Part shown: positions 3,912-60,510 of the stretch, in pieces | Numbering within the stretch: position 1 is the stretch's first letter | How the letters are laid out: each line of letters starts with the position of its first letter | From: Synechococcus sp. | GTDB lineage: Bacteria > Cyanobacteriota > Cyanobacteriia > PCC-6307 > Cyanobiaceae | DNA: 64,000 bases | Assembly: GCA_047285535.1 (NCBI GenBank) | Contig: JBJBDC010000001.1 | Span: 2,080,136-2,144,135, forward strand | Reading direction: 5' to 3' | Made by a program: the position numbers and the translations under genes | Notes under the pieces: model-generated | The model's input: the letters and a program-made list of their open reading frames with translations, nothing else | Told to the model about the DNA's origin: nothing | The model's database searches: none

Positions 3912-4160
3912 TCACCGATAACAAGAACTGACGTCCAATATATGATTATTGGGCCTCGATTCCTGCGCAATGTTGCCTTCGGGATCTAAATTCTCCGAAG
4001 GCAAAGCTAGCGCAAGGCCTAAGATGCATTTCGTAACATCAGGACTGGGTACTTCAAGTGGCCCAAACGAAACCTGTGCCTTGTCACCCGAGAAAGCAGG
4101 CGCCAAAGAAAGGCAGATTACAAAAAAACCTGCCGCTAAAAATAGGAGTGCATGCTTAAT
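3912..4160 (-). pseudogene. Possible degenerate secreted/pilin-like gene
   Basis: The open frame reads IKHALLFLAAGFFVICLSLAPAFS/GDKAQVSFGPLEVPSPDVTKCIL: a signal peptide plus a VxFG...C motif, with no ATG and an early stop. 5' limit approximate. Confidence 0.3.
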
Positions 4161-4872
4161 TTCAAATTCCCTAGCACTAAGTCAGCATATCTAATTCAAT
4201 CATCTGTGCAATATATGGCAATAAAAAACGAGATGGACCAGCAACTGGTTCATGCGTACCTAAGCCAGCCACCTACAAGCCAGATCCAGACTCATGAATC
4301 TACAGATGAGACACAAGAATAACCGCCAAGCGAGCTGAATGCATCAATAAATGCTTGATTCGGCCTCTCTGCCGCTGGGTTCTCACACAATCCAAAGACC
4401 AAGCAACAAGCTTTTAAACACTCGCCTCAATATTTCTTGTGCAACATTTTTCTCCGCAAAGAGGTCTTTCAAGATGACAGATAGGATTGATCCAAAGAAT
4501 TTCAAATTATCGGAATCAGTTGCAAAAGAGCTCCCAGGGAAGGGGCGAGGAATGGAAGAGCCTAGGTAAGCCTCAATGCATGAAATAGTCTATCCGCGCA
4601 AAAACAAGATATAAACCAACTACTGATGGATTGATAATCCAAAAAATGTCAGACCTTTGAAATTGTCAAGCCAATTAGCAACAATCTTTTAGAATTAGCC
4701 GTTGATTAGTATATATTAAAATCGAAAATCACTAAAGCCTCGGATCAAACCGTGGTCGACTCAGGATTCTCTCACCTAAGCTTAAGCCAGAGCTCAGAGA
4801 AATCAACCACAAACTTCAGCTATCTTTGAATGAGGAATCAAAGAGGCAACAGCAACACCTTCTTTTATTTAA

Positions 4873-5499
4873 ATGTTGACCATGTTGATCAAGTTCATTA
4901 CCAAAAAGCGCTTAAGCGCAAAAACTGCGAAGGCTTTACCAGTAGCAGCCCTGCTACTTGGCCTTTCAGCCCATAGTCCATTAGCGGAGGCTGCTTCGAG
5001 AACAAAAACTGGAAAAATTAACCCTGGGACAGTCAATACTTTTATTAAGTATAGAGCTCCTAAGCAGGATGTCTCTTGCACTCTTGAGGCATCGGATGGT
5101 CAAATGGCATATTATGCTGCTGACACTGGTCCGGCTTCCTATATCAGCTCAGCAAGAAGAAACGATTTAGGAGTTGCTGTTACTGAGATTGGAAATAACC
5201 CCAGATCAGCGGGCCGATTGATTGCTTATGCCACTGCACCCGCAAATACGTGGCAAGTATCATTTGCAAAACCAACATTAGATCCCAACAATTCAGACGT
5301 ACAATCTCTTAGACTAAAAGTAGGTGGAGCTGTTGTACAAAATTGGACACAAGCTGCTCTAACAACTAGAAATATGAATGTACCTCCGAATCAGCGGACC
5401 AATTTCGCAGTCGACGTAAGGTTTAGAAAAAATAATGGCTTTTTCCCGAAAAGTGTTTACAATGCGAGGGTAGATGTAGAATGCTTAGCTAAACCTTAG
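4873..5499 (+). CDS. Secreted pilin/spore-coat-U-like beta-sandwich protein (copy A)
   Basis: Signal peptide ending AEA; one early Cys (SCTL) and one C-terminal Cys in FPKSVYNARVDVECL; paralog of 5657..6385. Confidence 0.6.
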   Translation: MLTMLIKFITKKRLSAKTAKALPVAALLLGLSAHSPLAEAASRTKTGKINPGTVNTFIKYRAPKQDVSCTLEASDGQMAYYAADTGPASYISSARRNDLGVAVTEIGNNPRSAGRLIAYATAPANTWQVSFAKPTLDPNNSDVQSLRLKVGGAVVQNWTQAALTTRNMNVPPNQRTNFAVDVRFRKNNGFFPKSVYNARVDVECLAKP

Positions 5500-5656
5500 T
5501 CAATTCGCTCCTTGCCGCAAAATATAGCCTTAGCTAACTCAATTTGAACATCGGGAAACGAATACTGAATTCTTTCCCGATATTTTATTAGATAAAGACT
5601 TATTTAGTGCTATAGATTAATGAAAGAGCAAAGGAGCCTAATGCTATATTAGGAAA

Positions 5657-6385
5657 ATGGATTTTCTGAAAAGAGCCAATCTAAAACCAGACATCACGGA
5701 AGTCTTTATACCTCCCAGTAAGCGAACGAATGTTTTCTGGGTTCAAGCCAAAATAGCAACGCTTTCTTTATCGACCTTTGCATTGCTCACTCCAAGCGCC
5801 CATACATTAAGCCTTTACCCTGATCAGCTAAAATCAGCATCTGAGCAGTTCAACGTGGTCAATACGTCAAGCAAAGTTAGAAAGATCACAGTGGCAGAAG
5901 ATCCTGCGAGAAGAATAACCCAGAATGTTGAAACAATAGGGATTACTCAAAATAAGGAACTCAATCAGGCCAAATCTTGTACTCTAGAAACAAAAGATGG
6001 TGAGATGACTTACTACGTTGCAAAATCTGGCAACATTTCATATATAAGCTCAGCAAAAAAAGCAGAAGTAGCTCCCGATGTTGTTGTAATAGGTTTGAAC
6101 TCAATCAAACCAGGTACAGTTATCGTTTCAGCGAATGCTCCTCAAGGTTCGTGGAAGGTGTCTATGGCAGAGCCAACACTATTACCTGATGTTGGTAATC
6201 AAAACCATCTTAGAGTCACAAGGGGTGATTGGGATTCGGACTGGAAAAATAATGTATCACGTGTACCCCAAGTAGCCCCCAATCAAAAGGCAAAATTCAA
6301 TATCAACGTTAGGTTTAAATTGGCTGGTCTTTTCCCTGCAAATGTTTATAGATCAATGGTTCTTGTAGAGTGCTTGGCAGTTTAA
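5657..6385 (+). CDS. Chimeric secreted protein: chaperone-like N-terminus + pilin-like domain (copy B)
   Basis: The first ~80 aa align with 6924..7421; from SCTLETKDGEMTYY to FPANVYRSMVLVECL it aligns with 4873..5499. Confidence 0.65.
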   Translation: MDFLKRANLKPDITEVFIPPSKRTNVFWVQAKIATLSLSTFALLTPSAHTLSLYPDQLKSASEQFNVVNTSSKVRKITVAEDPARRITQNVETIGITQNKELNQAKSCTLETKDGEMTYYVAKSGNISYISSAKKAEVAPDVVVIGLNSIKPGTVIVSANAPQGSWKVSMAEPTLLPDVGNQNHLRVTRGDWDSDWKNNVSRVPQVAPNQKAKFNINVRFKLAGLFPANVYRSMVLVECLAV

Positions 6386-6923
6386 GACAGCTGCAAAACC
6401 ACAAAACCAAAATAATAATGAAAATTGAAAATATTCAAATGATATGACTCCAAATTTTTAGACATATTTGGGATGAAATTGAATGACCATAAATCCCCTG
6501 CTCCAGCAGAGCCCTAGGTTCTAGGGTTTAAGCGCCTTCTCACAGAACCTTCACTGAAAGAACAGATTGCTTAGTCACTCAGCAAGGGACAATAATATAA
6601 TTCTTCTTCCGTCATCTTTCATGTTGAGAGTGCCTTCAACCGTTCCATCCGAGCAAAGGCTCCATACATACCTTGCCAAAAGTCTTGATCAGAACGTGGT
6701 TTAGCAGTGGGAGGAGAAGGACAGAGTCTCAATAAAAATGCTAAGACGATCAGCTTCAAAGCAGGCCTCAGTCGTCACCGAAGGGCATTGCTTTGATCGA
6801 TTTTTAACTACTTTGTTCGATATACGTCGTCCTTGAGCTGCGGTGGTTCATGGCGGGAGCCTTATTCAAACTGAAGTTGCATCACTCTACTTGCAAATAT
6901 CAAGTATCAGCAGGAGGCTATTA

Positions 6924-7421
6924 ATGTTTAATTTAAACCATGAGAAATTTTTAAAGAAGCGCGGCCAGAGACTCAGTCGATTACAAATATTTCAAACATC
7001 GGAAAATTGGCGGAACCCGATCTTAATTCAAGTAAAAATAGCAATATTAACTTTATATGGCCTATCAATCATTCCCACAAGTGCCAACGCGCTGAGCCTT
7101 TCACCTCTCAATTTAGAATCAGCGTATGGACAATTACGAGTAGTCAACACTTCAGACAGACTTAGAAGGATAAAAATGACAGTCTATTCAGCGAAAATAA
7201 CGAATCAAGAGAGCAGTATTATAAGACCAGCATTAAATAAAGCAAGGATGAAAAATGAAGCCGAAATAAGCCCGAGCGTAGTTAGAGTATCTGGTAATTC
7301 CGCAAGATTTGTCAATTATTCAATTAGGAATGCCAAGGAGAATTATTATTTATGCGCTGAAACGTTAGCCAGCGCACAGTACAGGCTAAGAGTTTGTGCC
7401 TTATGGTTTGGGGGCAAATAG
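6924..7421 (+). CDS. Small single-domain PapD-like pilus chaperone-like protein
   Basis: Signal peptide ending ANA, then LSLSP...LRVVNTSD...EISPSVVRVSGNSARFV, the pattern of the PapD N-terminal Ig domain; C-terminal Cys pair (LCAE...RVC). The ORF opens at 6843. Confidence 0.55.
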   Translation: MFNLNHEKFLKKRGQRLSRLQIFQTSENWRNPILIQVKIAILTLYGLSIIPTSANALSLSPLNLESAYGQLRVVNTSDRLRRIKMTVYSAKITNQESSIIRPALNKARMKNEAEISPSVVRVSGNSARFVNYSIRNAKENYYLCAETLASAQYRLRVCALWFGGK

Positions 7422-7699
7422 GTTTATGAAAAAACTGCGCCCTAAGAGCACGCATAGAGCGGCCATCACCACTCTTCATCGAAAATCCCAATTCTGAATG
7501 CTAAAACCCATTATGCACGCCTCATTTTAGCCTAAAAGGTGTTGTAAGCATGTAGACTAACGCCTCAATACAATTGAGTCTTTAATTTGAATGGTGGGTG
7601 CCAAGTATTAAATGTATACTTATCTGTGTATTCAGATCAGTTCTGAGGCATTGAAATCTCAGATTTATACTATACCCTCAAAATTTACTCACAAAAAAA

Positions 7700-8299
7700 A
7701 TGAACCTTTGTCCCTCCAAGCCATGTCCTAAAAAGAGATTATTTTTTAGACGTTGGCGCCACTCAAGAATTTTTTTGATAGCAATCGTAAGTGGTTGCCT
7801 TGGAGACACGATTTCTAGTGCCAATGCCCAAATTTTTCTAAGCCCACAAAGCACTTCCGCTACACGATCAAGCGCTACAATTGATATTGACAATACACGT
7901 TGCTCTTCTTCTGGAGGCAGTGTTCCTTCATTATCATTATCATTTGGCGCGGATCCCTACGCAGTTAATTATTTTAATGATTTTGATCCAGTAAATACCA
8001 CCACTGCAAGCTCACCATTCCTAGGGATGGTCAGCATCAATATTCCCCTTAAAAGGACAAATCAGCATTTTAATTGCAATGAGCTTCATGATCTTGCTGT
8101 AAGGAGGTCAAAACTCGCAAGCTTGCGAGAGATGGTTGATGAACAAATCATTACGGAAGATCAATACACTACAGCAGTGCAAAATCTCTACAAAAATCTA
8201 CTCTATGGCGACGGTGATTCAGCAGATTCAGACAGTCGTATTGAGCAAGCAACCGAGGAATTAAAAATCGAAAGAGATAATGCTCTTAAGATCAACTAA
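7700..8299 (+). CDS. Secreted hypothetical protein with Cys pair and helical (SHOCT-like) C-terminus
   Basis: Signal peptide ending ANA; TRCSSSGG...VSINIPL...FNCNELHDL; KLASLREMVDEQIITEDQY resembles a SHOCT motif. Confidence 0.55.
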   Translation: MNLCPSKPCPKKRLFFRRWRHSRIFLIAIVSGCLGDTISSANAQIFLSPQSTSATRSSATIDIDNTRCSSSGGSVPSLSLSFGADPYAVNYFNDFDPVNTTTASSPFLGMVSINIPLKRTNQHFNCNELHDLAVRRSKLASLREMVDEQIITEDQYTTAVQNLYKNLLYGDGDSADSDSRIEQATEELKIERDNALKIN

Positions 8300-8852
8300 T
8301 TTGTATCCACAAGCGCATAGAACACTTGTTGTTTTTAAATAGCTCCAAAGCAATAAATACATGCACTTTGAAAAATAACCTTTTAAATTATTACAATTTA
8401 GCAAAAGTCCTTGTTTGGGCTGTCTGCTAATTGCCCCTCCCACAAAAACTTCACAGGCATGCCCTTTTTAATAAATCAGATAAAGAAGAAATTACCATCA
8501 AAGCCTTAATTAACCGCAGAGGCTTTTGCCACTTCGCGCAAGAACTGGTTTAGAAAATTTTTATTCCGCTCAGTAAGCAGATTCCGCATAAAACTAACAA
8601 CAGCCGCGCATTGATTTTCGCAATCATAGAGTACAAATGCTATCAACACTGCAATGTTTTCGTGCTCTTTTTCCTCAAAAAACCATCAAAACATAGTATC
8701 AATTGATCAAAACACAATTGCCAATCGACACTCTGTTGGCAAACAAATTCCCTGCTTATTGAACAATCTTATGCAGCAGTAGCTTTCTGCTGGCAGCACG
8801 GCCGTAAACCAATCAATAGCAGCAACTCCATCTGAAGACATACATTAAAAGC

Positions 8853-14474: not shown

Positions 14475-17004
<2,530 letters not shown>

Positions 17005-17613: not shown

Positions 17614-18234
17614 TCAAGATTGCATCTTCGTGTCGGCCAGGGCGCGCTGCGCTGCTCGCCCCACCAACCAAACCACAGCAATTGTGGCCAACACACCCAC
17701 CACACGCAGGATCCAAGCTTCTGCGGACGCCTTTCCGGCAAGCACTTCACCAAAGCGCGCCGCATCACCGGCCAAGGCGCCTAAAGCACAAAACAGAACT
17801 GTGCCTGGAAGAATGCCAATGAGGCCAATGCTGTAATCACGCAAGCTCACCTCGCTGAGGCCATAGGCCAAATTCAATAAGGAGAACGGGAACGCTGGAG
17901 AGAGGCGAGTCAGCAGCACAAGTTTGAGACCTTCTCGACTCACAGCCTGCTCAACAGCTTGCAGCTTCGGGAATTGGGTCAACCGTTGACTCGTCCAGCC
18001 CCGCAACCAGAATCGCCCCAGCAGGAAAGCCGCCTCGGCTCCAAGAGAAGCGCCTACAAACACAACCATGGTGCCCAACCAGGTGCCATAGAGCGCTCCG
18101 GCAAGCATCGACGCCCAAACCCCGGGGAGGAGCAACGTCACCCAAATGGCATAAAGCGGAATGAACACCACACCGCCCAATGGCGAGCGAAGCCAAACCG
18201 TCAGTGGCTCGAACCAGGACAGCCCCTCAATCAT
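17614..18234 (-). CDS. TVP38/TMEM64 (DedA/SNARE-associated) membrane protein
   Basis: LLTRLSPAFPFSLLNLAYGL motif. Confidence 0.9.
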   Translation of the reverse strand: MIEGLSWFEPLTVWLRSPLGGVVFIPLYAIWVTLLLPGVWASMLAGALYGTWLGTMVVFVGASLGAEAAFLLGRFWLRGWTSQRLTQFPKLQAVEQAVSREGLKLVLLTRLSPAFPFSLLNLAYGLSEVSLRDYSIGLIGILPGTVLFCALGALAGDAARFGEVLAGKASAEAWILRVVGVLATIAVVWLVGRAAQRALADTKMQS

Positions 18235-18314: not shown

Positions 18315-19601
18315 ATGCAGGAGATTGCTTGTCCAAGCGTCGTACCGATGCCTTCCTTCCGCAGTCCTATCGAGGGCCATCGCATAGCAGCCGTTCTGAG
18401 CGCTTTTTTGCTGAGTGGATGTGCCTTGATCGAAGGCGATGGGCCAACAACCATGTTGCGAGTGGTTCAAAGCAGCTATGAAAACGACGACAACTCCTCA
18501 AATCGCTTCCAGGCCGCTGAAACCATTCAAGACTTCAAAGAACAACTGAATCAGTTGCTGCCTGACCTCAAGCTGCATTTTTCAACCATCCCGTCCAAAT
18601 CGCTAATAGCGGACCTAAGAGCTCAGACACAGAGCGGACTCGGCCCAGATCTGGTGGTCACAGACAGCAGTGAGGCCCTTCGACTGCTCGCCCATGGACT
18701 CACCGAACCAATACCTCAAACTCAAGAGAGCTCAGAACTTATCTTTCCATCAGCTTTGAAACGAGTCACCGCAAACGATGGCTCCCTTGCTGGGCAACCC
18801 ATTGGCCAGTACAGACAACTGGCCTGCTACGACAAGCGTCAAATCAAGGATCCTCCTGAAACCCTGGCGGCTCTTTCGGCAGCCAGCCAAAAGGGCAAAA
18901 AATTTGGAATAGCTACCAAAATATTTGATCTGTACTGGAGCGTTGGCAGTTTCAGAGCAGGAGAGGCCTTAGCCGCCACCCTTGAAGGCAAAAAACCCAC
19001 AGCCGCTGCCAGCCAACGTCTTACAAATTGGCTGCGATGGCTCAAGGACTTCAGCTATCAGCAAAATATTCTTTTTTATCGGAATCAGGCAGGCCTTAGG
19101 CAGGGGTTAGTTGAAGGGGATCTGGACTGGATCAGTTGTTGGAGCTCTCAAATACCTCAACTCACACAAGCACTTAAAACCAATCTTGGCATCTATCATC
19201 TGCCCGATGGCGCCTCCGGCAAATCCACTCCAATTACGCGACTACAAGTCTGGTCATTAGGAAAAAATTCAAGCAAAAACCAACGAGAACAAAGCTTGAG
19301 ATTATTGAATTTCATGGTGCAGCCATGGGCCCAGAAAACTTATTCCCTCAGATACAGAACCTTATACCCAGTGAATCCTTCAGCAGCGCAAATCGTAAAC
19401 AGAAAACTGCCAGGATCGATAGACAGAATCAGTGAATCTGAGCTTCAACGTGTTGCCCGTGGAGACGCCATTGTTGCAGCGATCGATCAATATCCTGACC
19501 GCATAGAAGCTCTCCAATCAACACTTAGCAAAGTGATCTTCGGTGGTTTATCACCAAAGGAAGCGACCCTTGAAATCCAAACCAAACTAAAAGAAAAGTA
19601 A
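18315..19601 (+). CDS. Lipoprotein extracellular solute-binding protein (sugar-binding family 1-like), copy 1
   Basis: Lipobox LLSGC, GLGPDLVV, CYDKRQIKDPPETL; stop overlaps the MscS start (TAATG). Confidence 0.8.
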   Translation: MQEIACPSVVPMPSFRSPIEGHRIAAVLSAFLLSGCALIEGDGPTTMLRVVQSSYENDDNSSNRFQAAETIQDFKEQLNQLLPDLKLHFSTIPSKSLIADLRAQTQSGLGPDLVVTDSSEALRLLAHGLTEPIPQTQESSELIFPSALKRVTANDGSLAGQPIGQYRQLACYDKRQIKDPPETLAALSAASQKGKKFGIATKIFDLYWSVGSFRAGEALAATLEGKKPTAAASQRLTNWLRWLKDFSYQQNILFYRNQAGLRQGLVEGDLDWISCWSSQIPQLTQALKTNLGIYHLPDGASGKSTPITRLQVWSLGKNSSKNQREQSLRLLNFMVQPWAQKTYSLRYRTLYPVNPSAAQIVNRKLPGSIDRISESELQRVARGDAIVAAIDQYPDRIEALQSTLSKVIFGGLSPKEATLEIQTKLKEK

Positions 19602-20977
19602 TGACTTTAAACCACCCTATTTTCCTCACCGTGGTCCCAGGAGCAGTTTTCAATGAGCTGCTCAGTTGGGTTGCTTATCTCAACCGAATCACAGTGCTGG
19701 TCCAATTGCTGATCGTAGCCATTGTCATGGTTGCAGAACAGCAAGGTGCGCTGCGTCGTCGAGCGCAGTACCGGTTCATACCCGAATACATCCGGGTATT
19801 AATTGGCCCTCTCATCCTGCTGATCCTCACAGGCGCTTTCGCTTTAGCGGGCTTACCTTGGGGGCTTTTGCGCTACTTCGGCTTACTATGGCTCGGTTGG
19901 ATGTTATTCACGCCCCTAAAAACACTTCTCCTTAGAATCAACCAAAAATTCCCAGTTGAAGAGCTAGAAAGCACTTTTCTGAGACCAGTTTATGTAATTT
20001 TCTCAATCATAACCTTTGTAAGACTCATGGGAAGCTCGGACACACTGTCCAAACTTCCAATCGCAAATTTGTTTGGAGTAGAACTCACCCTCGGAAGAAT
20101 CTACTTTGCAATTATCGCGGTTTATGTGATTATTACAATGGCTTCAAGGCCTGCAACATTTCTAGCCTGGCTGAGCGGGATTCTACTTGGAGTTCGGCCT
20201 CGCAACAGGAGAGGCCTTGAGTTGTTATTTCGATATAGCGTGATCAGCATTGGCATCATTTCGGTTGCCTATTACATTGGGATTAATGGCACAGCATTTA
20301 TTGCAATCGCCGGCGGTCTCTCCGTAGGAATTGGTTTCGGAGTCAAGGAAATCATCTCCAACTTTATTAGCAGCATCTGGCTGTTATTTGAGGGTTCAGT
20401 TCGGCCAGGGGAAATCTTAATGATCAATGGTGACCCCTGCACAGTTCGAAACCTAGGGCTCAGAGCCACCCAACTCAGGAGAGGACGTGACGGGGCCGAG
20501 CTATTAATTCCCAATCAAACCTTCTTCACACAGGAAGCAACATCCTTCACTCAAACCGAAACATCAAGACGCGATAGTGTGTTTGTTGGTGCCGCCTACG
20601 ACCACGACCCGGATCTTATTATTTCGATATTAGAGGACATTGCCAAAGCACACAAGAAGGTTCTCGAGTATCCAAATGTCAAAGCATTCGTAATCGATTT
20701 CGCCGACTCCTCGATCAATTACAAAGTGTCATTTTGGGTCGCCAATCCCCTTGATGCATTTGATGTTTCTAGTGACATACGCAGAACTATTTGGAAGCAA
20801 TTCGAACAGAAAGGAATCACCATTCCTTTCCCGCAACGTCAGGTGTACCCCATGGAATGGCCGCCAAGCCTTCAGCAAAGTCTGCAGTCAACTGGAGGCA
20901 GAGGTGTAGTGCCGCAAAGCGAAGAACCAGAAGCTCCTAGCAGCAGCAAAGAAAACAGTTCCGAGGCCAAGCCCTAA
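19601..20977 (+). CDS. MscS-family mechanosensitive channel, copy 1
   Basis: GGLSVGIGFGVKEIISNF, LFEGSVRPGE, IPNQ, FADSSINY, IPFPQR; extra N-terminal TM helices. Confidence 0.9.
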   Translation: MTLNHPIFLTVVPGAVFNELLSWVAYLNRITVLVQLLIVAIVMVAEQQGALRRRAQYRFIPEYIRVLIGPLILLILTGAFALAGLPWGLLRYFGLLWLGWMLFTPLKTLLLRINQKFPVEELESTFLRPVYVIFSIITFVRLMGSSDTLSKLPIANLFGVELTLGRIYFAIIAVYVIITMASRPATFLAWLSGILLGVRPRNRRGLELLFRYSVISIGIISVAYYIGINGTAFIAIAGGLSVGIGFGVKEIISNFISSIWLLFEGSVRPGEILMINGDPCTVRNLGLRATQLRRGRDGAELLIPNQTFFTQEATSFTQTETSRRDSVFVGAAYDHDPDLIISILEDIAKAHKKVLEYPNVKAFVIDFADSSINYKVSFWVANPLDAFDVSSDIRRTIWKQFEQKGITIPFPQRQVYPMEWPPSLQQSLQSTGGRGVVPQSEEPEAPSSSKENSSEAKP

Positions 20978-21676
20978 GACCAGCATGGGTGTGCTGGCAC
21001 GACCAAGTACAACTTCAGCAGGAACCGTGGTGAGGAATGCAACGGGAATCACCAAAGTGAATAGCCATCGCAGTGGGGCTGGATAAGCCTGTACTGGATA
21101 GCGACCTGAAGCCAATACAGCCCGCAGCACCTCAGTGGCATTCCCCGTTTTGACAAACCAGATGCTTGTAGCCGCGATAAGAAACCACAGTGAATAAAGA
21201 ATCAAACCACCGGCCAGGAGCATCACCAAAACCACGGCGATCAGCACGGGAGAAACAGGAGCACCGACCTGATGGCCACCCCAAGCCACCAACAACAAGC
21301 CGAGGCCTATCTCTGGCAATCCTGCCGGTGCGATGGTGCGCAAGGACAACCAAAACTGGCTGTCGATCGGCTTCAACAAGACAAAATCAAGAGTTCCCTC
21401 CAGCACATGGGTCACGATCGAAGACAAGTTGGGGCGTAAAAAAGTGCTGGCCATGCCATCCAGGACCGTATAAAAACCCTGGACAACTAAAGCTTCATTC
21501 CAGCTCCAGCCACCCAACCCACGGCCGGGCCCAAAAAACAATGACAGTGTGAATAAGCTGCCCAGCAAACTCAATCCAACGGCTAGCAACTCAATCAAAA
21601 CGTTGAGCTGATATTCCAGCTGAGTGGCCATGGCTGTTCCCCAAAACCGCCTGAGGCTTTTGAAATACCTGCCCAT
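20888..21676 (-). CDS. ABC-2 type exporter permease (DUF990-like)
   Basis: GTLDFVLLKPIDSQF, GRYP, RHYTSASS terminus. Confidence 0.9.
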   Translation of the reverse strand: MGRYFKSLRRFWGTAMATQLEYQLNVLIELLAVGLSLLGSLFTLSLFFGPGRGLGGWSWNEALVVQGFYTVLDGMASTFLRPNLSSIVTHVLEGTLDFVLLKPIDSQFWLSLRTIAPAGLPEIGLGLLLVAWGGHQVGAPVSPVLIAVVLVMLLAGGLILYSLWFLIAATSIWFVKTGNATEVLRAVLASGRYPVQAYPAPLRWLFTLVIPVAFLTTVPAEVVLGRASTPMLVLGLGLGTVFFAAARSFWFFALRHYTSASS

Positions 21677-22477
21677 TCAGGCCCCCATCGCGCTGTAACG
21701 CCTCACTCCAGCGCGCCAGAGCAACAGGACGAGCGGCAGGAGCAGCACAATCCAGGCAATCTGAATGGCAAAACCAGACAGCAAATTGACAGGTTGTTCA
21801 GCCAGCACACGTGCTGGAAAATCAATCAAATAAGGAAAAGGAGTCCATTGAGCCAACGTGCGCATCAAGGGCGGAAAAGCCGTGAGAGGAGCAAGTAACC
21901 CAGATAAAAACAGGAAAGGAAGAAATAACAATCGTTCCAGTGCACTGGCTTTCTCGTTCCAAAAGCAAAGAGAGGCAATCAGACTTTGCAAAAGAAAAGC
22001 GATCGAAAAAGCCAGCCAGGTGGCCAGCCAGGCCAGCAAAAAACGGCCGAAGGAAGGAAGCCAGAATGCTTCTGGCTGAATCAGAAAAAAAATCGCGGTG
22101 ATGCCCCCTGCAAAAGGAAGACGGGTGAGCTGCTCTCCGAGATGGCTCGCTACATAACGCCAGAGCGGATGGAGTGGCTGAAGCAGATAAGGAGACAATC
22201 TGCCAGTCAAAGCATCCTCTTCAAAGGCATACACCATCCAGACCACAGAGAACTGGCGAACCAAAAAAGCACTCAAGAAATAACGATCGAGGCCCACCCC
22301 GTCCATCCCCAGAGCGTGACGAGCATCACTGCCATGCCAGAGGCTGAGCATGATGAAAGGAAGAACACCGGACAGTGCCCAAAGCGCAATTTCGGCGCGA
22401 TATTCGAGCATGTGAGCGTATGCCGTTCCCAACAAAGCGCGGAGGATTTGGCGATTGAGTCCAAAAATCCGCATCAA
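21677..22477 (-). CDS. ABC-2 type exporter permease
   Basis: GRLSPYLLQP, LSGLLAPL, RRYSAMGA terminus. Confidence 0.9.
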   Translation of the reverse strand: MMRIFGLNRQILRALLGTAYAHMLEYRAEIALWALSGVLPFIMLSLWHGSDARHALGMDGVGLDRYFLSAFLVRQFSVVWMVYAFEEDALTGRLSPYLLQPLHPLWRYVASHLGEQLTRLPFAGGITAIFFLIQPEAFWLPSFGRFLLAWLATWLAFSIAFLLQSLIASLCFWNEKASALERLLFLPFLFLSGLLAPLTAFPPLMRTLAQWTPFPYLIDFPARVLAEQPVNLLSGFAIQIAWIVLLLPLVLLLWRAGVRRYSAMGA

Positions 22478-23469
22478 AGACTTCCCTGACGAAACAGATC
22501 GCCGATCAGCTGATCAATAGGGGGATCATTCACCTCCAGATCACGCACCGCAAAGCGCTCTAACAGTTCTGCCACCACAGCAGTGAGCTCCTGAGGTTTC
22601 ACACGCAGATTGACCTCCCGGTCGTGAAGACTGTCCAGCCTTCCCAAACCAGCAAAGGCTTGCGCCGGAGCGGGTTCATCAAGTTCAAGGCGCACATGCC
22701 GCTCTGGAGCAAGCCGACTAGCCAAACGATCGAGCGGTCCGTCATGAAACAAATGCCCCTGATGGATCAACAACACGCGTGGGCATAAAGCCGTGATATC
22801 TGCCATGTAATGGCTCGTTAGCAACACAGTCGCACCGGTTCGTCGGTTGTAGTCCGCTAGGAACTCCCGCACTTTGGCCTGCGCATTCACATCTAAACCC
22901 AAGGTGGGTTCGTCCAGAAACAACACCTCAGGTTGATGAAGCAAAGCCGCGAGCAACTCAGCTTTCATCCGTTGACCCAGCGACAATTTGCGCACTGGGC
23001 GAATGAGCTCTTCACCCAGCTCTAATAAATCTGACAACTCAGCAATGCGACGATTCGCGACTCGATCACTGATGCCGTAAACAGCGGCATTCACCCGTAA
23101 CGAATCCATGGGAGGCAAATCCCAAAGCAATTGCTGCTTTTGTCCCATCACCAACGTGATCCGACGCAAGAAATCTGGATGGCGTTGTTGCGGGTGATGG
23201 CCTGCGATGACCACCCGGCCTGCACTGGGGTAAATCAACCCACACAACATTTTCAAGGTGGTGGTTTTCCCGGCGCCATTGGCACCAAGAAATCCAACCA
23301 TCTCCCCAGGTGCAATGGCGAAGGAAACGTCCCGTACCGCGCACACATCGCGATAACGACGCTTCACAAAATGCTGAAGGGTGCCAGCCAGGCCAGGCTG
23401 TTTATCAGCAACCCGATAGATCTTGCTCAGCTGTTCAACCGTGATCAATGAAGGTGAAGGGTTCAGCAA
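22474..23469 (-). CDS. ABC exporter ATP-binding subunit
   Basis: GANGAGKTT, LSLGQRM, FLDEPT. Confidence 0.93.
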   Translation of the reverse strand: MLNPSPSLITVEQLSKIYRVADKQPGLAGTLQHFVKRRYRDVCAVRDVSFAIAPGEMVGFLGANGAGKTTTLKMLCGLIYPSAGRVVIAGHHPQQRHPDFLRRITLVMGQKQQLLWDLPPMDSLRVNAAVYGISDRVANRRIAELSDLLELGEELIRPVRKLSLGQRMKAELLAALLHQPEVLFLDEPTLGLDVNAQAKVREFLADYNRRTGATVLLTSHYMADITALCPRVLLIHQGHLFHDGPLDRLASRLAPERHVRLELDEPAPAQAFAGLGRLDSLHDREVNLRVKPQELTAVVAELLERFAVRDLEVNDPPIDQLIGDLFRQGSL

Positions 23470-23854: not shown

Positions 23855-24814
23855 ATGACAAGCCAACTCATCCAGGAAAATCTTCTCAGGTTTATTCACG
23901 AACAAACTGGGAGGAGTGTTATCTACGAGCAGGAGCCCACACCCTTATTAGGCGGAATCGATGCGATGACTTACAAATTTAAACTGAGAGGTATGGAGCC
24001 GATGGTCCTCCGCCTCCTTGGAAGCGACAGAAGTGCGGAGGAAGTCAAACGGTTCCGAATTCATAGCCAAGTTCTCATTGGCGCAAACATCAAAGCTCCA
24101 AAGGTGTACTGGGTCGGCGAGGACAAATCAGTATTGGGAGGGGTTTTTCTAATTATGGAATTCTTCCCCGATCCACTTTTAGCAGAACAGCCAAAGAAAT
24201 TGCAGCTCAAAATCCTTGGGGAATCCCATGCACAGATGCATAATCTCTCAACGGCACAAATCACCAACGAATTAAAAAAAGAAGGGTTAAATGAAAAGGA
24301 TTTCATGGCCCCCATATTTATACCCCTTATTCTAGACTCAGCTCAGAGAGATCATCCTTGGCTAAGCAATATATTCAATTGGCTACAAAACAACCTGCCA
24401 ATCACTTCAGCCCATGCATCAATCAATCACGGCGACTATCATCCCAAAAACATTATGTACGCTTCGGAGGATATTACCGGCATCATTGACTGGAATTTTT
24501 TTATAGGTGATCCAGCATTTGATGTCGGGCACACAATCACGCTCATCATGGACATTGTACCCAATATTAGTGATGACTATACCCATGAAATAGCCTCTCA
24601 AAACAACGAGCAGTATCGAGACGCGTATCAATCAATCAGATCAATTGATGAGAAAGCCGTTAATGCTTGCAGGGTCTCCCAATGCACGGGATATCTTCTA
24701 CATTGCCTCTCAGGGAAGGACGATATCATTGCTACATCTCCTAGAATGCGCAGTAGCCTCACACAGACAATCGAAAACATCACTAACTTGGAAATAGCAT
24801 TTCCTGACCAGTAA
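23855..24814 (+). CDS. APH/choline-kinase-like phosphotransferase
   Basis: HGDYHPKN catalytic loop, IIDW, GDPAFD; lower GC than core genes. Confidence 0.85.
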   Translation: MTSQLIQENLLRFIHEQTGRSVIYEQEPTPLLGGIDAMTYKFKLRGMEPMVLRLLGSDRSAEEVKRFRIHSQVLIGANIKAPKVYWVGEDKSVLGGVFLIMEFFPDPLLAEQPKKLQLKILGESHAQMHNLSTAQITNELKKEGLNEKDFMAPIFIPLILDSAQRDHPWLSNIFNWLQNNLPITSAHASINHGDYHPKNIMYASEDITGIIDWNFFIGDPAFDVGHTITLIMDIVPNISDDYTHEIASQNNEQYRDAYQSIRSIDEKAVNACRVSQCTGYLLHCLSGKDDIIATSPRMRSSLTQTIENITNLEIAFPDQ

Positions 24815-24926: not shown

Positions 24927-26180
24927 ATGCCAACAAGAACTGGATTAATCAACACCATCACAATCGCAACAATGATGTTGCCGATGCTACTTTCCAGTTG
25001 CTCATCAGCGAACAAGCCAGCGCATACCCTCTATATCGCCTATTCCATTCCAGACAACGAATTCACACAGTCTTCAAAAGAACGTATAGAAAAGCAAATA
25101 AGCCTTAGAACTCAGCTATTTCTCAGAACAAAACCCAATACGCGTGTGGTCACAGTTGCCTACAAAGACAGTCAATTACAGCATCAGATCAGCGAAGACA
25201 GCCAACTTAATCTTGGACCAGATTTAATACTAACTGTTGATTTCTACCTGAGGGGTCTATATCAAGACTCATTAATAAGTGCTTTTCCCAACAGTACTTT
25301 ATGGGAGCAACAATACAGCGATATCATCAAAAGCCTCTCCACCGTCGACAAAAAGCTTGCCTTCGCTCCCTATGGAATTTATCCGCAAGTGTCCTGTTAC
25401 AACAACAAGACCATAAATCAGCCACCCAAAACAATCCAAGAATTAATGAAGCTTGGTGCCAGCGGCGTTCGCATTGGATTATCAACGCGCACCCATGAGA
25501 TCTTCTGGACGGCTGGATCGACCGGTGCCATCCCAGAAATCAGCTCACTGGTGAACAAGAAAAATCAAAATAAACTACACCCAAAAATCAAAGAATGGAT
25601 CACGTGGCTACGACAAGCGGCTTACTACCAAAACATTTTCTTTTACAGCCAGCAATCTGAACTTATCAATGAATTGGCCGCCAATAATCTTGACTGGATT
25701 AGCTGCCACTCCTCCGATATCGTGAGACTAAGAGAGGAAATGGGAGAACAGCTCAGCATTGCCACCCTTCCAAATGGAGTGCAAACAAAAGCTTTTGCTT
25801 GGCCATTTGTCCTCGGTTATGGCCTAGGCACTGATTCATCCCCAACACAACGGGAGCTCGCACTGAGTTATGTGAAAGCGAATACCAATGCTGTAGGCCA
25901 AAGGCGAGTGATGCTGCGTACAGAAGCTTACCTGCCAGCGAACAAGGCTGTTGACATTCCGAATCAAAGCTCCCAAACACTCAAAGCCAACAACGATTCC
26001 TGGAACGACCAATCACTCAGCTATCTGAAACTGTGGCCCATGGTCATTCAATACCTAGAAACAGAACAGGATCACCTGGCAGTTAATAAAACATTAACCG
26101 AACTCACCAGTGGAACTATCAGCGTTGACGATGCAGTGCAGGCCTTCACCAACTTGAGAAAAAAGACAAATAATGAATAA
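24927..26180 (+). CDS. Lipoprotein extracellular solute-binding protein, copy 2
   Basis: Lipobox LLSSC, LGPDLIL, CYNNKTINQPPKTI, LDWISC; paralog of 18315..19601; overlaps the MscS start by 8 nt. Confidence 0.8.
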   Translation: MPTRTGLINTITIATMMLPMLLSSCSSANKPAHTLYIAYSIPDNEFTQSSKERIEKQISLRTQLFLRTKPNTRVVTVAYKDSQLQHQISEDSQLNLGPDLILTVDFYLRGLYQDSLISAFPNSTLWEQQYSDIIKSLSTVDKKLAFAPYGIYPQVSCYNNKTINQPPKTIQELMKLGASGVRIGLSTRTHEIFWTAGSTGAIPEISSLVNKKNQNKLHPKIKEWITWLRQAAYYQNIFFYSQQSELINELAANNLDWISCHSSDIVRLREEMGEQLSIATLPNGVQTKAFAWPFVLGYGLGTDSSPTQRELALSYVKANTNAVGQRRVMLRTEAYLPANKAVDIPNQSSQTLKANNDSWNDQSLSYLKLWPMVIQYLETEQDHLAVNKTLTELTSGTISVDDAVQAFTNLRKKTNNE

Positions 26181-27471
26181 TCTTCTCTTCGAGGTTTCAT
26201 CCTGGACTGGATACATTGGTCGAGCAGCAGTTAGCTGGCAGTTGATCTTGATTGCCTGCGCACTAATCACTGATGTATTCATTCGCAACAGGCTAGAAGC
26301 AAAAAAAGCGTCACTCATCACATGCCAGGCCGCCGGTCCTCTTGCGCTACTTAGCATCAGCATTGTGCTTGGAATGGCCTCTATTCCCACGGGCATCGCA
26401 ATCCGGTTTGGATTGATTTGGGCAGCATGGAACCTGCTGTTGTGGATCGAACTGAAGCTGATCCAACGCAACCCGAAGGATCAAAGAGCACGCTGGCTCA
26501 GGCGCCTGGCCCGTCCTGCGATTCTTGTTTTTGCAGTGATTTACTTCGTCGACCGACTCAGCAGTCTCTCATCCATTCGTATCATGAATGTGGGCACATT
26601 ACTGGATTCCCAGCTGGCACTGGGCAAACTTTTTTACTCCTTGATCGGCCTCTATCTGATTCTGATTGCCAGCGCACCGATCGCATTCCTTATCTCATGG
26701 ATATCAAAAGAAGGCCTGAAAATCAGCAATCAAAGTCGTCATGCGATTGAAATCATCGTTCGTTATTCAATCATCAGTTTTGGCCTCCTGGCTGTGGCCC
26801 TTCAAGCTGGTTTTAACGCAACAGCATTACTCACCATTTCAGCCGGTTTGTCAGTCGGTCTTGGTTTTGGCGTCAAAGAAATCTTTGCCAATTTCATCAG
26901 CGGAATCTGGTTGTTATTTGAAGGATCGATCCGACCTGGAGAGGTTCTGATGATCAAAGGCGAGCCTTGCCGAGTCAACAAATTAAAACTTCGAGCCACA
27001 CTTCTATCCCGTGAACGGGATGACGCTGAACTGCTCATTCCCAATCAAACCTTTTTCACCCAAGATGCTGAATCATTCACAGCTGGCGAAAACTACAGAC
27101 GAGACGAAGTGGTTGTCGGTGCTGCCTATCACCATGAACCCAAGCAGGTGATGACACTTCTCGAGCAGGTCGCCTGCCAACATCCAAGGGTCCTAGAAAC
27201 TCCTGCTCCCAAGGCATTCGCAATCGATTTTGCAGAGTCGTCGATCAATTACAAACTTAAATACTCTGTCCGCAATCCCCTGGAGGCCCGCTCCGTCAGC
27301 AGTGACTTGCGTCAGGCGATCTGGACTGCGTTTAACAACCATGGGATTGGCATCCCCTTCCCACAACGCCAGGTTTATCCGATGGAGTGGCCACCCAACA
27401 GGCAATCAAGCCTGCACTCGCAGCGAAACCAACTCGATCACTCCTCCGCAAAGCAGCAGGATCTGGATTGA
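26173..27471 (+). CDS. MscS-family mechanosensitive channel, copy 2
   Basis: AGLSVGLGFGVKEIFANF, LFEGSIRPGE, IPNQTFFTQ, IPFPQRQVYPMEWPP. Confidence 0.9.
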   Translation: MNNLLFEVSSWTGYIGRAAVSWQLILIACALITDVFIRNRLEAKKASLITCQAAGPLALLSISIVLGMASIPTGIAIRFGLIWAAWNLLLWIELKLIQRNPKDQRARWLRRLARPAILVFAVIYFVDRLSSLSSIRIMNVGTLLDSQLALGKLFYSLIGLYLILIASAPIAFLISWISKEGLKISNQSRHAIEIIVRYSIISFGLLAVALQAGFNATALLTISAGLSVGLGFGVKEIFANFISGIWLLFEGSIRPGEVLMIKGEPCRVNKLKLRATLLSRERDDAELLIPNQTFFTQDAESFTAGENYRRDEVVVGAAYHHEPKQVMTLLEQVACQHPRVLETPAPKAFAIDFAESSINYKLKYSVRNPLEARSVSSDLRQAIWTAFNNHGIGIPFPQRQVYPMEWPPNRQSSLHSQRNQLDHSSAKQQDLD

Positions 27472-27484
27472 GTCACCCCTCTGA

Positions 27485-30229
27485 TCAAACCAGATCCGCC
27501 AGGCGTTTGCGGGCCAGATCCGCCTGGGCCTGCTTCTCCGCCAGGTTGGCCTGGCATTCCGCCACCACCTCCGGCGGGGCCTTGTCGGCGAAGTTGGGAT
27601 TGCCCAGCCTGCCAGCCAGGCCCTTGATCTCCTTCTCCGCCTTGGCGATGTCTTTCTCAAGGCGACCCTTGAGCGCATCAAGGTCCACCAGGCCTTCGAT
27701 CGGCAGCAGCACCTGCAGCTCACCGCTCACACCTGCGATCGCTTTGGCAACAGGGGAGGATTCAGCCTGCTCCGGAGTCATCACCGCCACCGAATCCGCC
27801 CGAGTCAGAGCTGTGATGTCGGCCATGCCCTGAGTAAGCACAGCCGCCAACTCGCCGCGGCCGGTAACGAAACGGACCGGCACCGATTGGGATGGTTTTA
27901 AACCCGCTACAGCTCGCAAATTACGGACCACTCGGATAGCAGCGATCAACTCAGCAAAGGAAGCTTCCAATCCGTCATCCAAAGAACCCTCTTCGATCGC
28001 GGGCCAAGGCTGAAGCGCAAGAAACGTGGTGTCGCTCTTCGCTGTCACGCTGTGCCAGAGCTCCTCGGTGAGATGAGGCATCAGCGGATGCAGCATCAGG
28101 TGCATCTGGCTGATCACCTTGGCCAGCACCTGCTTGGCCACTCGCTGATCGGCGAGGGCCTCCGCCGAGGGGTTCTCACCGGGATTGAGCCGGCGCTTGC
28201 TCAGCTCCAGATACCAGTCGCAGACGTCATTCCAGGCGAACTCGTAGAGACCCTTGGCCGCTTCACCCAGGCCATAGCTGCTGTAGCGCTCAGCCGTCTC
28301 CCTGTTCACCCGGGCCAAACGGGAGAGAATCCAGCGATCCGCCAGCTGCAATGCAGCGGGGTCGGGATCCCCCAGCTGGACCGGGGTTTCGCCGCCCAGA
28401 TTCATCAACGCGAAACGGGTAGCGTTCCAGAGCTTGTTGGCGAAGTTGCGGGACGCCTCCACCGTGGCGGAGGTGTCCTTCTTGCGGTCGTAGTCCAAGC
28501 GGATGTCCTGACCCGCACCGGCCACCTCCCGCACCAGGGCGAAGCGCAGGGCATCGGTGCCGTAACGGTCGATCAGCAGCAGCGGATCGATGCCGTTGCC
28601 GGCGCTCTTGCTCATCTTGCGGTTCTGCTCATCCCGCACCAGACCATGAATGTAGACGTCCTGGAAAGGCATCTCGCCGGTGAAGGCGCCGGCCATCATC
28701 GTCATCCGGGCCACCCAGAAAAAGATGATGTCAAAGCCCGTCACCAGCGTGCTGGTGGGGTACCAGCGCTGCAGGTCAGCGCTGCCTGCATCGGGCCAAC
28801 CAAGGGTGGAGAAGGGCCAGAGACCGCTGGAGAACCAGGTGTCGAGCACGTCTTCGTCCTGCTCGATCTCAGCCGCCGCGCCGTACTCCGCCTTGGCTTT
28901 CTCCAGGGCTTCGGCTTCGTTGCGGGCCACCACGTAGGGCGTGGTGTCGCTGTACCTGCCACTGGTTTCGCTGACCACAAACCAGGCGGGGATGCGATGG
29001 CCCCACCAGAGCTGGCGGCTGATGCACCAGTCGCGGATATCGGTGAGCCAGTCGCGGTAGACCTTCTCCCAGCGCTCCGGGATGAAAAGGGGATCCTTGT
29101 TATCAAGCGCTTCGCGGCAGCGGGCCGCCAGGGGCTCGGTTTTCACAAACCACTGGGTGGACAGCAGGGGCTCCACCGGCACTTTGCCGCGGTCGGAATA
29201 GGGAACGCTGTGGCGGTAATCCTCCACCTTCACCAGCAGCCCCAGCTCCTCCAGGCCTGCCACCACCGCCTTGCGGGCCTCAAAGCGATCCAACCCCTCG
29301 AACTGGCCGGCCTCATGGTTCATCGTGCCGTTCTTGCGCATCACCGTGATCTGGGGCAGACCGTGGCGCTGGCCGATGGCGAAATCATTGGGGTCGTGGG
29401 CCGGCGTCACCTTGACGCAGCCGGTGCCGAAATCCTTGTCCACATGGTCGTCGGCCACGATCGGAATCTCCCGCCCCACGAACGGCAGCGTGAGGGTCTG
29501 GCCCACCAGATGGGCATAGCGCTCGTCGGTGGGATTCACCGCCACCGCCGTGTCGCCCAGCATCGTTTCGGGCCGGGTGGTGGCCACCTCCAGATGACCT
29601 TCGCCGCTGCTGAGGGGATAACGGAAATGCCAGAGATGGCCGTCCACCTCCTTCATCTCCACCTCCAGATCGCTCACCGCCGAGCCCGAGGCAGGGCACC
29701 AGTTCACCAGGTATTCGCCGCGATAGATCAGCCCCTGCTCATGCAGCCGCACGAAGGCTTCCTTCACCGCCTCACTCAGGCCTTCATCCAGGGTGAAGCG
29801 CTGACGCTTCCAATCCACGGAATAACCCAAGCGCCGCAGCTGGTCCACGATGCGCCCACCGCTCTCGGCCTTCCACTGCCAGGCCCGCTCCAGAAAGGCA
29901 TCGCGGCCGAGGTCATGGCGGGTCTTGCCCTCTTCCTTGAGCTGTTTCTCCAGGATCGTCTGCACCGCGATCGAGGCGTGGTCCGTCCCCGGCAGGCAGA
30001 GCACGTTTTTTCCCGCCAGGCGCTGGTAGCGCACGATCGTGTCGATCAGGGCCGTGTTGAAGGCATGGCCCATGTGCAGGCTGCCGGTCACGTTCGGCGG
30101 CGGGATCACCACCGAGAACGGTTCACCGGGAGCCTTCGGGTCGGGATGAAAGGCCCCCTGGTCCTCCCAGACCTGCTGCCAGCGGGCCTCCGTGCCAACC
30201 GGGTCATAGGTCTTGGCCAGTTCGGGCAC
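27485..30229 (-). CDS. valS: Valine--tRNA ligase
   Basis: [31 protein letters not shown]-terminal coiled coil. Probable GTG start at 30229 (ORF open to 30253). Confidence 0.98.
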
Positions 30230-30320
30230 GGGAGGAACACAGACGCAGGACATATGGTCTCAAAAGACGCCCTGGGGCCGCCCAAACGCGATGATCAAAC
30301 AGCATCAATGCCATTGATCC

Positions 30321-54456: not shown

Positions 54457-54978
54457 TCAAAGCGGTAAAGCTTCTTGCTGCTTGGTCTCAGCCTTCCACA
54501 CTCGCCAGCGCAACTCCATCCCGTCGGGTAAATCAACAACAATTGGCCAAGATGCGTTGTAGGGAATGAGATAAGGCTGTTTGCCAAGGGACAAAAAAGA
54601 ACGGCTTATCGATTGATTCGGAGTACAAGCCTTACGCGTGCTCAAGACAATCACCGGCCCCCTAACCTCAAACAAAGCCTTACCAGAGGCCTTAGGGAGC
54701 CGACGCATCGATAGGGACGACCCCGACAAACGCTTGATGTTGCAATCAACATCCACTTCTTTCCCCACGATGAGTTGAATGCGCCAATCGATGGGATTGG
54801 AAGAGATCATGGCATCGTCACTCTTCGGCAGCAGTCCGGAGGGCTGGATCACCCAACGGTTCAAGCCTCCTCTGGGTGCTGGGTATCCACTCAGATCAAG
54901 ACGAGGAATCGCCACAGCAGCATCACTGAGCGCCACGAACAACAGAGGAAGTGCAAACCTCCACAGACCCATCGTCAT
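54457..54978 (-). CDS. Ecotin-family protein
   Basis: Signal peptide, YPAP...RWVI, IQLIVGK...[28 protein letters not shown]. Confidence 0.8.
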
Positions 54979-55004
54979 ACCCAAAGGGCAACAGAATGCC
55001 CAGC

Positions 55005-55685
55005 ATGACCGATTCCACCGCGATTGCCCTGCTCTCGGGCGGGCTTGATTCCGCAACAGCTGCTGCCCTGGCCATGAAATCAGGCTTCCGCGTGATTGGG
55101 TTGTCCTTTGATTACGGCCAGCGTCACCATCGTGAACTCGATGCCGCAGCTGACGTCGCCAAGGCTCTGAATCTCTCGGAGCACCACATCATCCAGGTGA
55201 ATCTTGCGAGTTGGGGAGGTTCCTCTCTGACCGATCACAACCAGGCACTGCCAACAGGAGGCGTGCAGGAGGGTGTGATTCCAAACACGTATGTTCCAGG
55301 GCGAAACACCGTCTTTATTTCGATTGGACTCAGCCTTGCCGAAGCACGAGCAGCTGATCGCTTGGTCCTGGGCGTTAATGCTGTGGACTACTCGGGCTAT
55401 CCCGACTGCCGACCGGATTACTTGAAGGCGTTTCAGGCTTTAGCTGATCTCAGCAGCCGCGCTGGTAGAGAAGGCCATGGTCCAAAGCTGTGGGCACCTT
55501 TGGTGGAGTGGACTAAACAACAAATTGCAGAAGAAGCACTACTGCTGGGTGTTCCGATCGAACGCACCTGGAGTTGCTACAGCGGCGGTAGCGAGCCCTG
55601 TGGGGTGTGCGACAGCTGTCGAATCCGTGATGAGGCTTTGCTCGCCATCGGACGACCAGATCTTTGCAGTCCTGGCTGTCCATGA
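55005..55685 (+). CDS. queC: 7-cyano-7-deazaguanine synthase QueC
   Basis: [36 protein letters not shown]. Alternative ATG at 54996. Confidence 0.96.
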
Positions 55686-60431: not shown

Positions 60432-60451
60432 GAATTACGCTCCTTTTCAAA

Positions 60452-60510
60452 TGGGCCCCGGTTCCCTGGCCCTAAAGCAGGTGCGCCCTGACTTAGCAGG
60501 GTGAACGTTT
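60452..60510 (-). ncRNA. Glutamine-II (downstream-peptide) riboswitch
   Basis: Minus strand CGTTCA-CCCTG(ctaagt)CAGGG-CGCA-CCTG(ctt)TAGG-GCCAGGGAACCGGGG, directly upstream of the SD and ATG of a DUF4278-like gene. Confidence 0.75.

Follow-up and report, generated by a model that had tools for sequence, protein, structure and literature searches.

Channels of the MscS type have been treated as tension-only sensors that do not need accessory proteins, according to a review of MscS-like gating (PMC13591265). The review also describes two kinds of MscS-like channels with an added sensory module: MscK and MscM, in which the fused periplasmic domains assemble into a ring involved in gating, and the mostly cyanobacterial bCNG (bacterial cyclic nucleotide-gated) channels, which combine an MscS-like channel with a cyclic-nucleotide-binding domain and may have roles beyond emergency release (PMC13591265). 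Here we describe two gene pairs in a 64-kb stretch of a Synechococcus genome (hereafter the window), in each of which the gene for a solute-binding lipoprotein overlaps the gene for an MscS-type channel (binding proteins A and B, channels A and B). Like MscK and MscM of Escherichia coli, which are the nearest solved relatives, these channels consist of an MscS core with extra N-terminal membrane helices. Unlike MscK, which has 11 membrane helices and a periplasmic domain of ~470 residues, they have about seven predicted membrane helices and no such domain. The candidate periplasmic module is instead a separate lipoprotein with a binding-protein fold, and not the helical bundles found in MscK and MscM. 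An MscS core is also combined with a ligand-binding module in bCNG channels, but that module is cytoplasmic, C-terminal and fused, whereas the one proposed here is periplasmic and a separate protein. MscS-like channels with an added sensory module are thus known from MscK, MscM and bCNG; what appears to be new, judging from the sequences, is a module in the form of a separate binding protein.

Binding protein A shares its fold class, Pfam family and lipoprotein anchor with those of ATP-binding cassette (ABC) sugar importers such as MalEFGK2, UgpBAEC and the cyanobacterial GgtABCD. Here, however, the binding-protein gene overlaps a channel gene, and neither the window nor 43 of the 44 related loci have a BPD_transp_1 permease or an importer ATPase next to the pair. 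A pore controlled by a clamshell of the binding-protein type is found in the bacterial GluR0 and in eukaryotic glutamate receptors, where the clamshell belongs to another binding-protein class and is fused to a potassium-channel-type pore. While the concept is the same, the pore in our pairs is of the MscS type, and binding domain and pore are encoded by separate genes. Free binding proteins that report ligand occupancy to a membrane protein other than an importer are also known, as in MalE-Tar, LuxP-LuxQ and ChvE-VirA, but the partners in these systems are chemoreceptors or sensor kinases, not ion channels.

A preliminary description of the locus had reported a solute-binding protein with a lipobox whose TAA stop codon overlaps the ATG of an MscS-family gene, and had pointed to a second such pair at 24927-27471. 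Sequence and Pfam searches bear out the first of these observations: the TAA of binding protein A (19599-19601) shares one base with the ATG of channel A (19601-19603). The second pair, located 4 kb downstream of the first and with an overlap of eight bases between its genes, proved to be a true paralogous pair. Binding protein B is 26% identical to binding protein A over its full length (E 2e-41), channel B is 47% identical to channel A (E 7e-132), and the gene trees agree.

Related loci were collected by scanning 185,579 species genomes with patterns from a 14-sequence alignment. The scan yielded 44 loci, retrieved via the binding protein and not via the channel, which together with the window make 45 sources; the readable DNA consisted of the window and of flanks of up to 6 kb at the related loci. 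All but two of the 44 loci are titled marine picocyanobacteria, which are the scope of the pairing result, and the named relatives of binding protein A are all Synechococcus. The two others are L011 (Salipiger, a Roseobacteraceae metagenome-assembled genome, MAG) and L041 (a Rhodopirellula MAG). Their pairs nest inside Synechococcus clades, and the L041 pair is identical to the L035 pair; both are probably cyanobacterial contigs that were binned wrongly.

In total, 54 binding-protein genes lie in the window and the 44 loci. Four of these were excluded because the contig stops at the end of the gene or no more than 22 nt beyond it; each of the other 50 is followed by some 90 or more readable codons. 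In all 50 cases, the next gene on the same strand was a channel of this type; 49 of the channels were identified by tblastn, and the one in L019 was confirmed from its 93 remaining codons. The first in-frame channel start overlaps the binding-protein stop in 48 of the 50 (39 at -4, eight at -1 and one at -8), and a 5-nt spacer separates the two genes in the other two. Recurrence in every testable case is an arrangement beyond chance, and the binding protein and the MscS-type channel form a real, conserved two-gene module in marine picocyanobacteria. The preliminary description had stated that its proposal would be overturned if the adjacency were not conserved and the homologues mostly sat with ABC permeases. 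Within the family covered, the outcome favours the proposal: the channel adjoined each of the 50 genes, and a permease was found beside the pair in only one of the 45 sources. The binding-protein gene itself is interrupted in two MAGs: it is split across two frames in L043 (6001-7198), and the match in L041 (1588-3045) has a gap of ~200 nt. The downstream channel is intact in both, and the interrupted genes could represent either pseudogenes or assembly errors.

The pairs occupy three positions, one flanked by the DedA/VTT gene and the ABC-2 exporter, one by this exporter and valS, and one by valS and a 2OG-Fe(II) oxygenase gene. Several genomes hold two pairs and one holds three, on the contig covered by L014 and L042. 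The pair has evidently been duplicated as a unit into at least three lineages. We compared the histories of the two genes in trees of 48 binding proteins and their 48 channels, from which L043, L019 and the four contig-end genes were omitted; these were quick IQ-TREE searches with support from the Shimodaira-Hasegawa-like approximate likelihood ratio test (SH-aLRT) only. The binding-protein tree contains group A with 38 rows (including the gene at 18315), group B with five (including the gene at 24927), group C with three, and two long single rows. Placed on the channel tree, these five labels took four changes, which is the minimum possible and was equalled in none of 200 shuffles. Groups B and C have support values of 100 and 87 in the channel tree, and group A takes two changes there because the long-branched L023 moves. 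Both trees recover the same paralogue groups, an outcome of the co-phylogeny proposed in the preliminary description that supports the pairing. Orthologues would give matching trees by common descent anyway; what is informative is that each binding-protein paralogue has kept its own channel paralogue.

These results bear on the simplest alternative, namely that the genes have no functional link and share an operon from inherited gene order alone. The narrow clade and its syntenic region are what such an inheritance would look like. Nevertheless, the pairing holds in all testable cases across copies with only ~25% identity at three positions, the overlap is kept in nearly all of them, and the two trees recover the same paralogue groups. 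We therefore consider the lack of any functional link very improbable.

The two proteins have also diverged in parallel. Among 43 complete pairs, the binding protein had a mean p-distance of 0.61, compared with 0.58 in residues 10-200 of the channel and 0.29 in its residues 201-420. Binding-protein distances were correlated with those of the N-terminal extension of the channel (r 0.958) and with those of the channel core (r 0.821). The partial correlation between binding protein and extension given the core was 0.872, while that between binding protein and core given the extension was 0.229. As supporting evidence only, these correlations would fit co-adaptation of the binding protein and the channel extension.

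Channel A (458 aa) exceeds the Pfam cut-offs of MS_channel_1st (score 26.2, cut-off 23.1), MS_channel_2nd (41.1, cut-off 20.2) and MS_channel_3rd (57.3, cut-off 21). Channel B is above the cut-off for MS_channel_2nd and MS_channel_3rd and reaches 19.0 for MS_channel_1st, for which the cut-off is 23.1. The pore-lining helix region, the beta domain and the alpha-beta domain follow one another in order, which places the channels in the MscS family. The closest solved relative of channel A is MscK (7uw5), both by sequence (E 2.1e-27) and by fold (1.0e-17 over 431 aligned columns). MscS and MscM come next (MscM 11so, E 1.9e-21 by sequence), and the fold matches to MscS structures had TMt values of 0.67-0.70. 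The NCBIfam equivalog model for MscK (NF008438) gave 127.6 and 150.3 bits against a cut-off of 991, with matches to profile positions 833-1105 only. The channel is predicted to be a heptameric, tension-gated pore of the MscS/MscK type.

The MscS core of channel A begins near residue 206 and is preceded by ~205 extra residues, which are mostly helical and hydrophobic. About seven membrane helices are predicted in the AlphaFold2 model of the monomer (pLDDT, the predicted local distance difference test score, 72.9). The model begins with an amphipathic helix (residues 13-27) and four extra membrane helices (30-47, 68-83, 88-113 and 119-142), followed by a helix (145-151), a short hairpin (153-163) and the three core helices. 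The extra N-terminal helices announced in the preliminary description are seen in the model as four helices ahead of the core. Past about residue 420, the tail is unconserved and modelled with low confidence. A periplasmic location of residues 1-27, 84-87 and 143-164 is suggested by the known topology of MscS cores together with positive charges at residues 51-58 and 199-204 (the positive-inside rule). The extension has conserved blocks at residues 19-35, 86-100, 143-165 and 181-190, and E19, W23, R29, V32, Q35, P70, W97 and P129 are invariant. The first three of these blocks, in an extension that otherwise evolves fast, coincide with the predicted periplasmic segments. The extension family is small: a profile of the first 200 residues found 161 representatives at E<=1e-3 among 1.84 billion proteins.

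We favour the reading that the two genes make up one functional unit, in which an MscK-like channel works with a separate, lipid-anchored binding-protein subunit, a detachable periplasmic sensor that would tune gating by ligand occupancy. This reading is favoured because of the strict linkage of the genes, their duplication as a unit, the agreement of the trees, the parallel divergence, the conserved elements on the periplasmic face, the kinship with MscK and MscM, and the lack of an importer nearby; we judge its chances of being correct to be about even. What we infer is that the two proteins touch, where the binding protein docks, which ligand it senses and in which direction it acts. The overlapping reading frames would cause both proteins to be made in roughly fixed proportion, and the binding protein would be anchored in the outer leaflet of the cytoplasmic membrane. 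It would dock on the conserved periplasmic elements of the extension, namely helix 13-27, turn 84-87, and helix 145-151 with hairpin 153-163. The open (ligand-free) or closed (ligand-bound) state of the binding protein would then shift the tension threshold or the closing of the channel. The likeliest class of ligand would be a sugar-type compatible solute released by the cell, such as glucosylglycerol or sucrose, and sensing of the released solute would provide feedback on solute release. A more specific version, which we advance tentatively and hold to be clearly less probable, is a binding-protein-gated MscS channel, in which the binding protein senses either a compatible solute that the cell itself has released or some other periplasmic sugar and sets the opening or shutting of the valve. 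The binding protein would then be an obligate accessory subunit, and the paralogous pairs would be tuned to different ligands.

Whether a ligand should be expected at all depends on the binding proteins. Binding protein A belongs to the family-1 solute-binding proteins by profile (SBP_bac_8, E 3.9e-27, 96.2 bits, cut-off 27) and by its two-lobe fold, which is complete in the AlphaFold2 model (pLDDT 85.3; pTM, the predicted template modelling score, 0.81). Binding protein B has no Pfam match at E<=0.01 and is assigned to the family only via its homology to binding protein A. The lipobox of binding protein A (L-L-S-G-C) closes a signal peptide at Cys36 (codon 18420-18422) and is the same whether translation starts at 18315 or at an alternative in-frame ATG at 18348. 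Binding protein B has the lipobox L-L-S-S-C25 (Cys25 codon 24999-25001). The cysteine and the two leucines of the lipobox do not vary among the 14 sequences of alignment A1, and their conservation is at least 90% in a 63-sequence alignment (A2). Both proteins carry the bacterial lipoprotein signature and are predicted to be lipid-modified.

The best Foldseek matches of the binding protein A model in the PDB were MalE (8art, 6.9e-18), GacH (3jzj) and UgpB (4aq4), with TM scores of 0.6-0.7 and identities of 12-18%. Others included trehalose/maltose and sulfoquinovosyl-glycerol binding proteins. By sequence profile, the best solved relative reached only 2.9e-10 with partial coverage. Reading a ligand from these fold matches was rejected, as they span binders of maltose, trehalose, glycerol-3-phosphate, sulfoquinovose and beta-glucan at such low identity. 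Residues that are invariant across the 63 sequences include G110-P111-D112, Q168, C171, W208, W239, W242 and W272, and C275 is nearly invariant.

The distance from characterised sugar binders, in the profile as well as in the fold matches, is consistent with another explanation, in which a binding-protein fold was co-opted into a periplasmic ring or tether that works without any ligand. Such a structure would replace the MscK/MscM ring in trans and set curvature, hysteresis or cell-wall coupling. The MscK-like channel without a ring domain points in the same direction, as does binding protein B, which no longer matches any Pfam binding-protein model. Nevertheless, the complete two-lobe fold has been kept, with high model confidence, and the invariant W208, W239, W242, W272, Q168 and D112 appear to be the kinds of residues that are typical of sugar-binding clefts. 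We consider a purely structural role unlikely.

Binding proteins of this fold often point to an importer, but none was found beside the pairs in the window. Of its 57 non-overlapping open reading frames (ORFs; at least 90 aa, across 64 kb, all scanned with Pfam), none encodes a BPD_transp_1 (MalF/G-type) permease. Membrane genes of tripartite ATP-independent periplasmic (TRAP) or tripartite tricarboxylate transporters (TTT), that is DctQM and TctAB, were likewise not found among the 57 ORFs, and the binding protein is of the SBP_bac_8 type, not of the DctP/TctC type. The absence of a nearby importer permease, with only an ABC-2 exporter on the opposite strand, had been noted in the preliminary description and holds across all 57 window ORFs. 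In the flanks of the related loci, we scanned 56 of the 122 listed ORFs, from eight loci, leaving out the pairs, L013, L014, L002 and parts of L012 and L036 as redundant; the loci omitted from this ORF scan were covered by tblastn only. A single flank ORF of the 56 encoded a BPD_transp_1 permease, with homologues in only one of the 45 sources. On the basis of the ORF scans and tblastn, an adjacent importer, in the form of a binding-protein-dependent ABC importer operon, was rejected for the window and 43 of the 44 related loci.

The exception is strain WH7803 (L007:2832-5968), where two extra genes lie between the DedA gene and the binding protein, directly upstream of the pair. They encode a duplicated BPD_transp_1 permease of 609 aa and an ABC ATPase that carries an AAA_assoc_C domain, and ATGA overlaps join permease, ATPase and binding protein. 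The best NCBIfam matches of this cassette are nitrate, sulfonate and taurine transporters, all below cut-off. By tblastn, neither the window nor any of the other 43 loci, among them L008 and L009 as close relatives, contained a homologue. The cassette is therefore evidently an insertion specific to this strain rather than an ancestral arrangement. In the same strain, the type A pair is directly followed by a third MscS gene, which is shorter (L007:8625-9686; ~350 aa, Pfam Msl2-3_C type). It occupies the same position in L008-L014, L016-L018, L020, L021 and L039 and lies beyond the ABC-2 exporter in L001, L002 and L005, while no copy was found in the 64-kb window (tblastn, E<=1e-8).

An importer need not be adjacent to its binding protein. 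The pair could be a release-and-recapture operon without contact between its products, in which the binding protein serves a distant CUT1-type ABC importer (for example of glucosylglycerol, sucrose or trehalose) and is merely co-transcribed with a release valve. Its fold is that of the importer binding proteins MalE, UgpB and GacH, and cyanobacterial importer binding proteins are usually lipid-anchored. In WH7803, an importer permease and ATPase even abut the binding protein. In addition, a published network model of strain WH8102 lists GgtC, GgtD and GgtA, while GgtB, the binding protein, is reported as missing (PMC2874817). A single distant importer would not be expected to result in two or three diverged binding proteins (~25% identity), each with an equally diverged channel. 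Nor would it be expected to make binding-protein divergence track the channel extension rather than the core. The importer of WH7803 has no counterpart in the remaining 43 loci or in the window and is of the nitrate/sulfonate type. Importers of this type normally use another class of binding protein. Taken together, we regard recapture as a serious but minority possibility.

A direct role in uptake, with solute passed on by the binding protein entering the cell through the MscS pore, is the reading that we consider least likely, and we give it almost no credence. Only the gene adjacency and the lack of a permease speak for it. MscS-type pores are described as non-selective, tension-opened release valves without energy coupling (PMC6753628, PMC13591265). 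Entry through such a pore would need a downhill gradient, which dilute seawater would not offer.

Several observations weigh against the favoured sensor-subunit reading. All loci come from one narrow clade in which the ligA-to-valS region is syntenic, and some of the conserved adjacency could therefore go back to gene order that was inherited. Since the loci were found through the binding protein, the count of 50 out of 50 speaks only for the direction from binding protein to channel. The distance correlation across the 43 pairs rests on non-independent pairs, and the correlation with the extension could exceed that with the core because two fast-evolving regions correlate for rate reasons alone. 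The pair can also sit in an importer operon, and in WH7803 the binding protein could serve that importer. The channel is predicted to expose little to the periplasm: ~27 N-terminal residues, a 4-residue turn and a loop of ~22 residues. Furthermore, MscS and MscL gate without accessory proteins, according to the review (PMC13591265).

Finally, a fused binding-protein-channel protein, which would have argued for the sensor-subunit reading, was not found. A search for proteins of 750-2140 aa related to the binding protein returned none, which is weak evidence. Among the 161 proteins with the channel extension, the 150 that were listed are all at most 601 aa long and carry the extension at the N-terminus, and none has a binding protein ahead of it. 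More distant relatives of the binding protein were not found either: the 63-sequence profile gave 82 matches, all of the same family and the weakest at 7.7e-105, with none between that value and 1e-5 among 8000 candidates scored. In a protein atlas, the binding protein fell only into generic binding-protein clusters, mostly cyanobacterial. Ten cluster look-ups returned few names, among them one Chloroflexota channel and one 'potassium-dependent mechanosensitive channel'. A full-text literature search, whose coverage excludes most subscription journals, found no published description of a binding protein paired with an MscS-type channel, and the excerpts of the September 2026 review of MscS-like gating mention no binding-protein partner (PMC13591265).

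Table. Positions in the 64-kb window of the two gene pairs and their neighbours.
Feature	Positions	Strand	Length	Description
ligA	14914-17004			ordinary neighbour
DedA/VTT membrane protein	17614-18234	minus		
Binding protein A	18315-19601	plus	428 aa	family-1 (MalE/UgpB-like) solute-binding lipoprotein; PF13416 SBP_bac_8
TAATG junction	19599-19603	plus		stop of binding protein A and start of channel A, one base in common
Channel A, N-terminal extension	19601-20215	plus		residues 1-205; AlphaFold2 secondary structure
Channel A, MscS core and unconserved C-terminal tail	20216-20977	plus		Pfam MS_channel_1st/2nd/3rd
ABC-2 exporter	20888-23469	minus		two ABC2_membrane_6 proteins and a DrrA-like ATPase; between the two pairs
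APH-type kinase	23855-24814			
Binding protein B	24927-26180	plus	417 aa	homology to binding protein A
Channel B	26173-27471	plus	432 aa	MscS-type; homology to channel A
valS	27485-30253	minus		

The genes around the two pairs are listed in the table. Channel A has a 90-nt 3' overlap (20888-20977) with the convergent ABC-2 membrane gene on the minus strand. Promoter-like and terminator-like sites numbered 10 and 13, respectively, as chance would give (8.4 and 12.4 expected), and no Rfam families were found near either pair.

Elsewhere in the window, positions 4001-8300 have a G+C content of 0.40-0.41, compared with 0.50-0.58 in the surroundings. Four ORFs within this segment (4873-5496, 5657-6382, 6843-7418 and 7700-8296) have no Pfam match, and the segment may be an acquired island. 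A Glutamine-II riboswitch aptamer was found at 60450-60510 on the minus strand (36.9 bits, gathering score 33), directly upstream of a 146-aa ORF without a Pfam match (59994-60431, minus strand). The segment 50173-54450 encodes an ABC exporter of 1008 aa (cNMP_binding, ABC_membrane, ABC_tran), in which the cyclic-nucleotide-binding domain is N-terminal, followed by an HlyD-type adaptor, and an ecotin gene lies next to them on the opposite strand (54460-55056).

If the sensor-subunit reading is true, a separate, ligand-binding periplasmic sensor would add chemical control to a mechanical valve and extend the known roles of binding proteins. In the more specific, binding-protein-gated version, such channels would join ABC, TRAP and TTT transporters, sensors and chemoreceptors as a new class of membrane partners of periplasmic binding proteins, and the channel would be the first of the MscS type with an obligate accessory subunit. 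The module is small, consisting of two genes, and is present in cultured strains such as WH7803. Marine Synechococcus are major primary producers of the ocean (PMC6753628). How they retain or release organic osmolytes bears on the release of dissolved organic carbon and on their tolerance of salinity changes.

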